Shown in pieces: positions 2,890-5,521 of a stretch of 7,346 nt of DNA. The notes under the pieces are model-generated. The model was not told the origin of the DNA. It made no database searches and saw only the letters and a program-made list of their open reading frames with translations. The DNA comes from a virus (lineage: Duplodnaviria > Heunggongvirae > Uroviricota > Caudoviricetes), in IMG/VR virus record IMGVR_UViG_3300029840_000137, positions 1 through 7,346 of that record, one strand, 5' to 3'. Position 1 is the first letter of the stretch. Every line of letters begins with the position of its first letter. The position numbers and the translations under genes were made by a program.

Positions 2890-3309
2890 ATGGACAAATA
2901 TGAATTTAGACGACAGCAACTCATCAAAATTCGTGATGAGAAATGCGATGGTAAAGCGGTTAACGTGGCCAGAAAGATCGGGCGCGAGCCTTCTTATGTA
3001 TCAAGAATGTTGTACCCAGAGGGGAAAAAGGGAAAAAAACGGATCGCTGATGATATGGTGGAGATTATCGAAGAGTCCTTTGGGTTACCCCGGGGATGGA
3101 TGGATGGTATCGTTTCATCATCAACGAACACAGCCTCCAGTTATGAAACAAGGGTTCTAACGCCACGACAACGTATTTTTTTAGATCTCTTAGACGAACT
3201 GCCAGAAAGTGAAGCGGATAAATTATTAAAAACTCTTGAAGAGAAAAAACAGTATTACAATATGATCTACGAAGAAATCCGTAAAAAGAAAGCACAAAAC
3301 GCATCATAG
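2890..3309 (+). CDS. CI-like prophage repressor (HTH DNA-binding protein), probably translated from a leaderless mRNA
   Basis: 139 aa. HTH-like segment (VNVARKIGREPSYVSRMLYPEG). Divergent to the cro-like gene. No Shine-Dalgarno; candidate -10 directly upstream. Confidence 0.75.
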   Translation: MDKYEFRRQQLIKIRDEKCDGKAVNVARKIGREPSYVSRMLYPEGKKGKKRIADDMVEIIEESFGLPRGWMDGIVSSSTNTASSYETRVLTPRQRIFLDLLDELPESEADKLLKTLEEKKQYYNMIYEEIRKKKAQNAS

Positions 3310-3349: not shown

Positions 3350-3390
3350 TTTACCCATGGGTATTTACTTTTTAAATACCTATGGGTATC
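3350..3390 (+). promoter_or_regulatory. PL-like early promoter with two palindromic operator sites
   Basis: -35 TTTACC (3350-3355), 16-nt spacer, -10 TTAAAT (3372-3377). Perfect palindrome TACCCATGGGTA (3352-3363) overlaps the -35. Near-palindrome ATACCTATGGGTAT (3376-3389) overlaps the -10 and start. Half-site ATACCCA is shared with the direct repeats in the divergent region. Confidence 0.5.
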
Positions 3391-3493: not shown

Positions 3494-3727
3494 ATGACGG
3501 CAGGGTTCAACTTTAATAACTATGCAGCAGGTTTTTGTTCCGCTACCCCGGCGTTAAGGGGAAATGAGGTCAACATGGATATGCTCAATCTTGGCAACAA
3601 CGAATCTCTGGTATGTGGCGTGTTCCCCAACCAGGACGGCACGTTTACCGCGATGACGTATACCAGAAGCAAAACGTTTAAAACTGAAGCTGGCGCGCGT
3701 CGCTGGTTAACCAGAAACACTGACTGA
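3494..3727 (+). CDS. Small hypothetical early protein (77 aa; alternative start at 3575 gives 50 aa)
   Basis: First ORF downstream of the PL-like promoter. GAGG 9 nt upstream of ATG 3494; GAGG 5 nt upstream of the internal ATG 3575. Sits where the small ydaF/ydaG-type ORFs lie in Rac (from memory). Confidence 0.55.
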   Translation: MTAGFNFNNYAAGFCSATPALRGNEVNMDMLNLGNNESLVCGVFPNQDGTFTAMTYTRSKTFKTEAGARRWLTRNTD

Positions 3728-3738
3728 TGAGGTTGACG

Positions 3739-4140
3739 ATGGAATTTAAAGATTTACCAGTACCATTCCAGGAAATGGCATCGAATGTGGTTCGCTCTCA
3801 ACTGGCGACTCTTGACCTGAGTACCGTAGAAAAAGAAACCATCGATACTATATCCGGTAACGTGCGTCGTGCCTTTATAGGTCTGTATGAAGAGAAGCGC
3901 CTATTCGGCGGACAGAATTCGCCTGAAAACAAGAATCAAGCAAATGATGAGAAGCTGAAACACATTATCGCCTTACTTTTGGAAGACGCAAAACGTCTAC
4001 AGCAACTGGAACCAAATGCAGGCACAGAGGCCCGCATTTGGATTGCCATGAAATCACTCAAATGTGAAAGCAGTGATTATTTCAAAACAACAATTAAAAC
4101 TACTCAACTTTCGGGAGAGCTACTGAAGAAATTGCCATAA
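3739..4140 (+). CDS. Hypothetical early protein (133 aa from ATG 3739; track frame opens at 3727)
   Basis: GAGG 6 nt upstream of ATG 3739. The ATG at 3727 overlaps the upstream stop (TGATGA) but has no Shine-Dalgarno. No domain recognised by eye. Confidence 0.55.
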   Translation: MEFKDLPVPFQEMASNVVRSQLATLDLSTVEKETIDTISGNVRRAFIGLYEEKRLFGGQNSPENKNQANDEKLKHIIALLLEDAKRLQQLEPNAGTEARIWIAMKSLKCESSDYFKTTIKTTQLSGELLKKLP

Positions 4141-4378
4141 GAGCATGGTCTTTCTCTTGTTCTGCAAGATGAGCATTAATACCTGGTATGGTTTTTTCAA
4201 ATTTATCTATCTGTTGAATAACAACTTCGCGGTATACGTTTGTTTTTGTACCACCAAGCGCAGCCGTTAATGCAGAAAGCATATTTAGTATCATATCAGT
4301 GCGATATGAAAGAATCCTGATAGCTTCATCTTGTTTTTCAATAATAGATTGCAGGGCCTCAATTTGCTTTTTATCCAT
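4100..4378 (-). CDS. Hypothetical small protein (92 aa from ATG 4378; track frame extends to 4417), oriented against the early-left operon
   Basis: Strong AGGAGGG 4 nt upstream of the ATG at plus 4376-4378; the 4417 start has no Shine-Dalgarno. AT-rich. The 3' end overlaps the convergent plus-strand ORF by 41 bp. Contains a short hydrophobic stretch (MILNMLSALTAALGG). Confidence 0.5.
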   Translation of the reverse strand: MDKKQIEALQSIIEKQDEAIRILSYRTDMILNMLSALTAALGGTKTNVYREVVIQQIDKFEKTIPGINAHLAEQEKDHALMAISSVALPKVE

Positions 4379-4612
4379 TTCACCCTCCTGAGGGTTGGTA
4401 ATTAAGGAGTTCTCCACGGGTCAGGTGGAGTGCGTGCGCCGGACACGGGTGAACATCCGGCACTGACAGTTTACTGAAAGGATATGTCCCTGAAAAGTCA
4501 GGGCATAACGCGAAAGCGCACGGCGAAATTGGTCTCTCTGTACGGTGTCGTTAAATTTAGTTCGACCGTGCGCTTCCGGTTGTGAATAACAACATTGCTG
4601 TGTGTAGCCCTT

Positions 4613-4653
4613 GGCGGACATCGGTTTGCCGATTGCTGATGTCCGCCCTTTTT
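4613..4653 (+). terminator. Rho-independent terminator, plus strand
   Basis: Perfect 10-bp stem GGCGGACATC (4613-4622) / GATGTCCGCC (4638-4647) with a 15-nt loop, followed by CTTTTT (4648-4653). Confidence 0.7.
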
Positions 4654-4829
4654 AAAGTGAATTTTGTGATGCGGTGAATGCGGCTATGCGCACGCGGAAC
4701 AGTTAAACCGACAGGATGTCACGGAAAGTCATCGTCCCCTGACCCGGCGTTAGTTGTTAACTGGTTAACGTCACCTGGAGGTACCAGGCACCGCATCAAC
4801 AAAGTTCATTTGTGAAAATGGAGATAATT

Positions 4830-5051
4830 ATGATTGCTCATCACTTCGGAACTGATGAAATACCACGTCAGTGCGTGACGCCTGGCGATTATGTTCTTCA
4901 TGAAGGTCGGACATATATCGCTTCAGCAAACAATATTGAAAAGAGAAAACTCTATATTCGTAACTTCACAACAAAAACATGCATTACCGACTGCATGATT
5001 AAAGTTTTCATCGGGCGCGATGACTTACCCGTAAAAGCAGCGTCGTTGTGA
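4830..5051 (+). CDS. kilR: KilR-like cell-division inhibitor (73 aa from ATG 4830; track frame opens at GTG 4812)
   Basis: GGAG 6 nt upstream of ATG 4830. The 73-aa length matches Rac KilR and the position between the immunity region and recE is as in Rac. Identity rests on recollection of [10 protein letters not shown]... and on context. Confidence 0.6.
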
Positions 5052-5134: not shown

Positions 5135-5521
5135 ATGAAAGAACTTGCGCAAAATGAAATATTTTCCGAAACCAGTCCTGATGCAATAAATGAAGTCAAA
5201 GAAATTGCAGAACGCATCAGTAAAATATGCAAAGAATACAAAATCGACTTTGTATTTTCTTTTTCAGTACTTACAGAAGTTGGAAATAACGAATATAAGG
5301 ACAGTCGTTTTGTTTTATGTGGGTTAAATGGCAAAACACCAAGCCCATATATTCATGCTGCATGTGAAGTCGTCAGAAGCAACATTGGAGCACAACAAAT
5401 CCATACACTGGCGCAGGCTCTTGAGTTTGCAAGAGAAAATTCTGAGTGCGACTGCCCTGAATGCCAGCACGAAAAGGGAAAAACAACTCACAAAACAGCA
5501 AACCAGGCAACCTTCCACTGA
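5135..5521 (+). CDS. Hypothetical protein with C-terminal CxCxxC motif (CDCPEC), possibly YdaE-like zinc-binding
   Basis: 128-aa ORF between kilR-like and recE-like genes, in the slot held by ydaE/racC in Rac. Weak A-rich ribosome-binding region. Confidence 0.65.
   Translation: MKELAQNEIFSETSPDAINEVKEIAERISKICKEYKIDFVFSFSVLTEVGNNEYKDSRFVLCGLNGKTPSPYIHAACEVVRSNIGAQQIHTLAQALEFARENSECDCPECQHEKGKTTHKTANQATFH

Follow-up and report, generated by a model that had tools for sequence, protein, structure and literature searches.

The spacer upstream of kil in a Rac/Qin-type lambdoid prophage probably carries an exchangeable KilS-type small RNA cassette

In the window, i.e. the whole stretch of 7,346 nucleotides that was analysed, a spacer rich in hairpins and closed by an intrinsic terminator precedes a kil-type gene, which raises the question of what kind of RNA is specified there. 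In an earlier note, an undescribed phage sRNA and an antitermination RNA had been considered among other possibilities. Our analysis points, with a probability of roughly 0.8, to an untranslated spacer (4395-4653) within the early-left operon of a lambdoid prophage of the Rac/Qin type, composed of a conserved leader and an exchangeable sRNA cassette of the KilS type (Table 1).

The gene order on the plus strand is a repressor-like gene (2890-3309), a DUF1391 gene, orf137, the non-coding spacer, kil and a gene at 5135-5521. Pfam searches identified the DUF1391 protein (YdfA/YdaF type) at 3494-3727 as well as YdaS-like and YdaT-like regulators on the opposite strand, and based on these genes together with kil the plus strand was assigned to the early-left operon of a prophage of this type. 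The gene that had been called kilR is named kil in near-identical relatives, which confirms the position of the spacer just upstream of a kilR-type gene, and its start codon at 4830 is found 176 nt after the terminator end. No gene resembling N was detected in the interval from the repressor gene to kil. A small minus-strand gene (4100-4378, phrog_18692) is located antisense within the operon, at the place taken by sieB in Rac and lambda.

Table 1. Position and strand of the features of the spacer and its surroundings
Feature	Position	Strand	Basis or remark
H0, CTCCAC / GTGGAG, start of conserved leader	4412-4430	+	repeat finder
H1, GCCGGA / UCCGGC, 12-nt loop	4438-4443 / 4456-4461	+	repeat finder
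H2, CCCUGA-AAAG-UCAGGG	4488-4493 / 4498-4503	+	repeat finder
H3, long-range helix	4504-4584	+	covariation; encloses 42-nt loop
TAAATT, counterpart of the K-12 KilS promoter -10	4552-4557	+	alignment with K-12
Putative KilS-type sRNA, counterpart of the 98-nt K-12 primary transcript	4562-4653	+	homology, same place relative to kil
Seed core CAUUGCUGUGUGUAG, between H3 and terminator	4593-4607	+	identical in K-12 KilS
Intrinsic terminator, G+C-rich 10-13 bp stem and U5	4613-4653	+	repeat finder, RNAfold
Structured kil 5' UTR, STnc100-like; outside the finding, same scaffold	4654-4829	+	Rfam, sub-threshold
kil (kilR-type FtsZ inhibitor)	4830-5051	+	near-identical genes in relatives annotated kil, Kil or KilR
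Mechanical ORF, 66 aa	4421-4621	-	ORF list
Mechanical ORF, 33 aa	4484-4585	+	ORF list
Mechanical ORF, 31 aa	4582-4677	+	ORF list

All four secondary structures listed in the earlier note, two hairpins, a long-range inverted repeat and the terminator, were recovered with a repeat finder. The long-range repeat exists, its length having been underestimated at 8 bp: it comprises 13 nt at 92% (4511-4523 / 4566-4578). The terminator was also borne out, with a perfect 10-bp stem (GGCGGACATC, 4613-4622 / GATGTCCGCC, 4638-4647) followed by C and TTTTT (4649-4653), a run of five U only; RNAfold predicted a 13-bp stem of -23.9 kcal/mol, then U5. It was missed by a simple terminator scan because its 15-nt loop exceeds the limit of 8 set in that scan. 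Folding of 4418-4655 yielded -94.5 kcal/mol, whereas dinucleotide shuffles had -76.1 +/- 4.7 (z -3.9), and 4562-4655 reached z -3.5 relative to shuffles; none of 200 shuffles was equally stable. A covariance-model search of the whole window against Rfam, which had been suggested as a check, returned no family above its gathering score and only DicF, RprA and STnc100 below threshold.

Judged by homology, the last ~90 bases of the spacer are a variant of KilS, a family that has already been described. Positions 4572-4660 are 80.4% identical to the MG1655-type kilS position over the whole 89-nt query (E 9e-13), and the ncRNA kilS (b4833) is annotated exactly there in the MG1655 RefSeq record (1418405-1418502). 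With the same query, the cassette was matched in 2028 out of 5426 complete E. coli genomes (~37%), at an identity of at least 95% in 63 genomes and of 100% in O104:H4 (FDAARGOS_349, NZ_CP027394.1, 504269-504357). KilS of K-12 is a 98-nt RNA from the kilR 5' UTR of the Rac prophage, with a transcription start of its own according to TSS data; yncL is a RIL-seq chimera partner, and three RIL-seq interactions are known in all (PMC8175672). Bar et al. 2021 (PMC8175672) predicted the RNA, which is associated with Hfq, from RIL-seq data and confirmed it on northern blots. The earlier suggestion of an sRNA locus is therefore upheld, its 3' part being homologous to KilS, and the term "undescribed" had to be abandoned, since this sRNA is both annotated in MG1655 and published with northern verification. 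Beyond Bar et al. 2021, no mention of KilS was found in the literature searched, and Rfam 15 contains no KilS family.

Like K-12 KilS, the element of the window is situated directly upstream of kil on the kil strand, shares its terminator foot and is followed by the same STnc100-like leader, and besides the 80% identity over 89 nt the 15-nt seed core is identical. It differs from K-12 KilS in its upstream leader, which is of the Qin type and not of the Rac type, in the absence of the TG of the extended -10, in a shorter terminator loop with an extra A-U pair that makes the stem perfect, and in six further positions around the seed.

The comparison with dicF and dicB drawn in the earlier note proved to be one of orthology, as both flanks align with the ydfC-dicF-dicB spacer of Qin. 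The layout of Qin in K-12 is ydfA, ydfB, ydfC, a gap and dicB. In the alignment, 4395-4578 is ~90% identical to the ydfC-dicF spacer and 4643-4810 is ~85-90% identical to the dicF-dicB spacer; ~190 nt of Qin (pre-DicF plus DicF) are replaced in the window by ~65 nt, which can be aligned with the Rac sequence immediately preceding kilR. Positions 4400-4860 matched 4614 of the 5426 complete E. coli genomes, mostly as two pieces split by an insertion. In phage Tritos, a "DicF antisense sRNA" is annotated in the gap between two such pieces. When the DicF locus is defined by conserved flanks reaching from ydfABC-type genes to a division-inhibitor gene, the spacer of the window belongs to it, as it aligns on both sides with Qin and with Tritos. 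The element of the window and DicF (Rfam RF00039, dicBF operon of Qin) thus resemble each other in the upstream leader, the downstream spacer, the terminator foot and the division-inhibitor gene that follows, and they likely share the same biogenesis by termination and RNase E/III processing. The seed, however, is entirely different, and ~125 nt of pre-DicF sequence are absent in the window.

For a view of this slot that does not depend on the seed, IMG/VR was baited with the 3' half that the terminators have in common (CCGCCCTTTTTAAAGT). Among the unique loci obtained, 64 carried DicF-type and 24 carried KilS-type cassettes; a third seed (CAACAACCCAUGUUGAUUACCUUUU) was present in six unique loci and a fourth in at least one. 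Mosaic cassettes were also seen, for instance with the DicF seed joined to a terminator loop of the KilS type, or conversely. All collected cassettes are preceded by the H3 3' arm and have the GGCGG...CCGCCC foot, and on this basis DicF and KilS can be considered alleles of one locus. The literature consulted does not state such allelism; Faubladier and Bouche 1994 (J Bacteriol 176:1150), which reportedly deals with dicF-like sequences in prophages, may bear on this point. A contig scan with the terminator and the downstream 26-mer retrieved Escherichia, Shigella and two metagenome bins only, and no other genera.

A second IMG/VR bait, consisting of the seed and GGCGG, yielded together with the earlier loci at least 104 distinct sequences; both baited elements are fixed by this choice, and the set is uninformative on their conservation. 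A T run follows the seed in 103 of the 104 distinct phage-contig occurrences listed, with a hairpin predicted directly before nearly all of them. The terminator stems show 44 different arm combinations among the matches listed, all with the GGCGG/CCGCC foot, and kil or dicB was found within 1.5 kb downstream in 26 of the 104 distinct sequences listed. At two divergent loci a CI/LexA-type repressor gene precedes the element by ~1.1 kb on the same strand, an arrangement that again corresponds to the early-left position. A gathering-mode Rfam scan of 11 other seed-carrying loci gave no family at the seed. For 13 diverse members, RNAalifold recovered the terminator, with double changes in its inner stem, and in addition a small GUUGU/ACAAC hairpin.

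Compensatory changes, which had been proposed as a test of the leader structures, were observed in H3 and in the terminator; the two small hairpins H1 and H2 are conserved and show little covariation. H3 is the best-supported element of the leader, with strong covariation. Its inner arms are AAGCGCACGG (4514-4523) and CCGUGCGCUU (4566-4575), its outer arms CAUAAC (4504-4509) and GUUGUG (4579-4584), and an internal loop ACGA/CCG separates the two parts. Among 41 distinct arm combinations, very divergent phages included, 97.3% of cells are in standard pairs and both-side changes occur at four of ten pairs (52 cells). The distal arms of divergent phages are fully different (ACGG/CCGU, AUUUCC/GGGAGU, ACUCC/GGAGU, GUUCG/UGAGC). 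The covariation score was 0.384 compared to 0.176 +/- 0.014 for shuffles (0/500), and slid registers reached at most 0.153. The outer pairs counted (4506-4509/4579-4582, n=4) are 99% paired and vary only between U.G and C-G, and the flanks CA(C/U)AAC and GUUGUG are conserved. The numerous G.U variants in H3 fit an RNA of the plus strand only.

Support for the remaining leader hairpins is lower. H1 is 99% paired in 53 distinct Qin-type leaders, with an invariant stem and a variable loop; the only stem variants are five G.U pairs and three mismatches, double changes are not found, and H1 is consequently conserved with covariation giving no information. For H2, support is moderate to weak: the upper four base pairs are conserved, the lower two pairs are formed in about half of the relatives (CC/AC in Qin), and C-G is replaced by U-A in three sequences. 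H0 is weakly supported, being paired in 77% of cells in the 53 Qin-type leaders and specific to this class, as a different hairpin-forming sequence is found at the same place in another leader class. A likeness of H2 to lambda boxB (CCCUGAAAAG resembles GCCCUGAAAAAGGGC) was considered and rejected, given the different stem register and the missing N-like gene.

The seed lies between H3 and the terminator and is mostly unpaired: RNAalifold pairs only four of its bases, via weak invariant pairs. Its GCUGUGU is invariant in the 24 KilS-type alleles, which were collected independently of the seed. The last 14 nt of the seed (AUUGCUGUGUGUAG), together with flanking similarity, equal the block of RprA (Rfam RF00034), a core-genome Hfq sRNA, that directly precedes the RprA terminator. 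In the Rfam consensus of RprA, the matching block is written in capitals, i.e. as most conserved. Against this 3' block (AUUGCUGUGUGUAGUCUUUGCC), the window is identical at 14 of 14 positions and K-12 KilS at 16 of 16. The local alignment of K-12 KilS with RprA scored 40, compared to a maximum of 28 in 5000 shuffles (Gumbel p ~2e-7, or ~7e-4 after multiplication by 4227 families); for the window the corresponding values were 1.4e-6 and 6e-3. The Rfam model of RprA gave 30.3 bits on the window (E 1.9) over the 3' block only and did not reach its gathering score of 70. RprA differs from the window element by the lack of synteny and by its terminator, and its 5' stem-loops and rpoS-pairing region are absent in the window. 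The likeness is a resemblance of seeds and not membership of the RprA family. The matching seed is presumably the part kept in the processed short form of RprA.

KilS and RprA also have yncL in common as an experimentally detected target, yncL being listed among the RprA targets found by both RIL-seq and TRIC-seq. Because the two RNAs that share the block share this target as well, it can be argued that the block is a functional seed. Pairing was evaluated for chosen candidates, with the short seed against 80 nt of target. The seed core is predicted to pair with the yncL 5' UTR at -37 to -16, shortly before the Shine-Dalgarno sequence, in a duplex of 9 + 6 bp with a 5-nt bulge (dG -17.0 kcal/mol, z -4.3; one of 1000 shuffles as good). 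When duplexfold was applied to the long sRNA and target windows, shuffles scored equally well owing to large loops. Two division genes were rejected as targets: ftsZ, which the earlier note had suggested, and ftsA, for both of which pairing was no better than with shuffled seeds. The equality of the last 14 nt of the KilS seed with the RprA block and the shared yncL suggest a cross-talk of the prophage with the host envelope-stress and biofilm regulon.

The downstream flank 4654-4829 is closed by a helix (4662-4676 / 4789-4803) found with the repeat finder. It resembles STnc100 (Rfam RF02076; PasD/StxS prophage RNA group) through a conserved CACC-stem-AGGNA-stem-GGCACC hairpin, with 28.3 bits (E 0.0037) against a gathering score of 47 that is not reached; the likeness concerns this flank and not the sRNA cassette. 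The STnc100-like leader is conserved in Qin and Rac, and the only changes seen in the closing helix between Qin and the window are C-G to U.G and G-C to G.U. The published STnc100 and PasD loci belong to the late (Q) region.

K-12 has an extended -10 (TGTTAAATT) that ends 6 nt before the published KilS 5' end. The window reads TCGTTAAATT at this place, and the TG is lost. Since this extended -10 TG is the probable driver of KilS in K-12, independent transcription is doubtful here, and processing becomes the likelier route to the RNA. A weak -35 (TTGGTC, 4529-4534) was noted 17 nt upstream of TAAATT, and a promoter scan reported no site in the TAAATT region. A single RN|WUU motif of the RNase E type is present in the seed region, with a predicted cut before 4594 that would leave AUUGCUG at the 5' end. 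RprA is cut by RNase E to a shorter form, and it has the same GA|AUUGCUG arrangement, which we take to be its actual cleavage position. For DicF, the 5' end is generated by RNase E from the operon transcript, and the 3' end either by termination at the equivalent terminator, giving a 53-nt form, or by RNase III, giving a 72-nt form. Mapped onto the window, the published 3' end of the 72-nt form, 19 nt past CCGCCC (UUUUGU|GAUG), would fall in the 5' arm of the closing helix. The cassette is bracketed by two conserved helices, the downstream one of which would by this mapping coincide with the published RNase III site. H3, with at most ~16-19 bp and an internal loop, is short for a classical RNase III site.

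The following course of events can be proposed for the window; the discrete Hfq-bound RNA of ~98 nt, its end at the terminator and the yncL chimeras are transferred here from K-12 by homology and from published work. Upon derepression of the operon, part of the transcription would stop at 4653 and thereby define the 3' end of the sRNA. The 5' end would arise, as in DicF, by processing of the operon transcript, through RNase E before 4594 and/or cleavage at H3, and a weak internal promoter at TAAATT may add to the sRNA. The resulting RNA of ~60-90 nt would bind Hfq and pair through CAUUGCUGUGUGUAG with host mRNAs, among which yncL has the best support as a target; as the seed shares its last 14 nt with the RprA 3' block, part of the RprA regulon is probably within reach of the RNA as well. 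Read-through transcripts would proceed into the STnc100-like leader and kil, and RNase III cleavage in the closing helix would part the sRNA from the kil mRNA.

Other explanations of the spacer have to be weighed against this reading. Among them, a purely cis-acting role deserves most attention, in which terminator and leader merely limit read-through into toxic kil and the short RNA is an incidental product that does not act in trans. A toxic gene directly downstream, a strong intrinsic terminator within the operon and the very few RIL-seq partners of KilS are consistent with it. For a plain attenuator, however, it would be unexpected that the single-stranded GCUGUGU core is invariant and the terminator loops and inner stems vary; moreover, the complementarity to yncL is well beyond chance, yncL chimeras have been published, and DicF, which occupies the same slot, is a proven trans-acting sRNA. 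We therefore regard the cis-only explanation as unlikely. Considerably less probable still is a cis-acting role of the leader hairpins in processive antitermination, as an RNA of the HK022 put type by which RNA polymerase would pass the terminator in a phage without N protein. The lack of an N-like gene agrees with this proposal, as do the conserved stem-loops preceding a terminator that has to be read through for expression of kil and the genes beyond. Against it, the element is more than 1 kb away from the presumed early promoter, and H3 spans the 5' boundary of the sRNA, in contrast to two adjacent stem-loops just after the promoter. No Rfam family was matched, and HK022 is not among the 40 of 48 phage records listed as matching 4400-4860, a comparison that does not include a direct put test. 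The antitermination RNA considered in the earlier note thus found no support in our results.

For a diverged DicF that still represses ftsZ together with Kil, the orthologous locus, the common terminator foot (UUGGCGG...CCGCCCUUUUU) and the Rfam DicF match (E 0.0025) can be cited. With 29.5 bits this match does not reach the gathering score of 48; it covers the terminator only, and the DicF 5' region is absent. In addition, the element of the window lacks complementarity to ftsZ: pairing with the ftsZ leader gave z +1.3, and the best site in the whole ftsQAZ region was matched by 64 of 100 and 23 of 100 shuffles. The statement of the earlier note that the sequence is not DicF is in line with these values, and a surviving DicF function appears very improbable, slightly more so than antitermination. 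Least credible of all, with practically no weight, is a small protein encoded by the 66-aa minus-strand or the 33-aa plus-strand frame. Both are present in the mechanical ORF list, yet the two frames are disrupted by three single-base indels in E. coli G6/7, the closest relative at 92% identity, so that the absence of a convincing ORF asserted before is confirmed. The substitutions fit RNA helices of the plus strand (G.U pairs, compensatory changes), and annotated relatives have no gene called here.

Returning to the KilS-type cassette, a more general but tentative proposal, to which we give less than even odds, is that enterobacterial lambdoid phages use the slot in their early-left operon as a general plug-in site for sRNAs, and that in the KilS-type seed they carry a copy of the RprA 3' seed. 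According to this proposal, cassettes of seed plus terminator would be swapped by recombination on a fixed processing scaffold, the latter formed by the covarying H3 on the upstream side and, on the downstream side, by the RNase III helix of the STnc100-like leader; the cassettes seen here would be of the DicF or the KilS type, carry one of at least two further seeds, or be mosaics. The DicF and KilS alleles with their common flanks and terminator foot offer a natural case of seed swapping on a fixed biogenesis scaffold, and this scaffold holds in H3 a strongly covarying helix worth following up. If the seed is indeed copied from RprA, derepressed prophages could gain access to the RprA regulon of the host, yncL being the first target in common.

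Among other prophage sRNAs, the Pas sRNAs and HnrS were set aside as products of the late region, and StxS because the seed string is absent from it. A parallel in position is LPR1/PreS of lambda, likewise an Hfq sRNA, which is formed at the intrinsic terminator tL2a within the pL operon; in gene order it follows sieB and precedes kil, being located between ral and ea10, and it is processed to a shorter form (bioRxiv 10.1101/2024.10.31.621285). In sequence and seed it is unrelated to the element of the window, and its targets are dnaN and other mRNAs.

The place between the 3' arm of the long-range helix H3 and the foot of the terminator, upstream of kil, is occupied in other phage loci by additional cassettes carrying different seeds (L097, L060, L102, L080, L052, L096, L126 and L111). 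One of these seeds is CAACAACCCAUGUUGAUUACCUUUU, and that of L111 is distinct from it. These additional cassettes may represent hitherto undescribed sRNAs. In many loci bearing the KilS-type seed, among them L162, L147, L159, L179, L194 and L236, the terminator hairpins are very long (65-83 nt), and their loops share the conserved motif GGGGGA(G/C)GAAGATAATGTTCT.

The arrangement of the surrounding elements also differs. In L146 (2230-2389), L142, L171 and other phage contigs an STnc100-like hairpin is located immediately 5' of the same seed and terminator, whereas in the window it lies downstream of them. The order of the scaffold modules therefore varies among phages. In the window, the Rfam STnc100 model scored 28.3 bits on the kil 5' UTR (4654-4829), under the threshold of 47. 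Conservation of this structured leader extends to Qin and Rac, to the P1-like phages D6 and P7 and to some plasmids. The stems of its core hairpin differ in sequence in other phages (CCUGG, CCGGG, GGUGG). When mapped onto the window, the 3' end that RNase III reportedly gives the 72-nt form of DicF would fall inside the 5' arm of the closing helix.

Features of the kil leader and of other parts of the window
Feature	Position	Strand	Remarks
Replication-initiator-like ORF	1114-2091	minus	
16-bp hairpin, then T-rich run	3352-3388		between repressor-like gene and DUF1391 gene
92-aa gene	4100-4378	minus	phrog_18692, function unknown
Closing helix of kil 5' UTR	4662-4676 / 4789-4803		
Core hairpin of kil 5' UTR (4654-4829)			CACC-stem-AGG(U/C)A-stem-GGCACC

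The outer part of H3 can form by pairing of GUUGU (4579-4583) with the upstream CAUAAC. According to RNAalifold, the same GUUGU can alternatively pair with the downstream ACAAC (4589-4593), giving a small hairpin with one covarying pair. Since two partners are possible, the free sRNA may adopt a conformation that differs from that of the long transcript.

The 92-aa gene, preceded by a perfect AGGAGG Shine-Dalgarno sequence, is antisense within the early-left operon and shares 41 nt with the end of ORF 3727-4140. It has the same position as sieB of Rac and lambda, and its promoter must be a minus-strand promoter situated inside the leader region.

The 16-bp hairpin is probably a terminator or an operator region adjoining the early-left promoter; an Rfam microRNA match at this hairpin was spurious. 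The replication-initiator-like ORF contains 17 consecutive N (1629-1645), and DPS(N/T)(I/V)D peptides are repeated in its product. These repeated peptides suggest iteron-like DNA repeats, i.e. a putative intragenic origin as in the lambda O gene.
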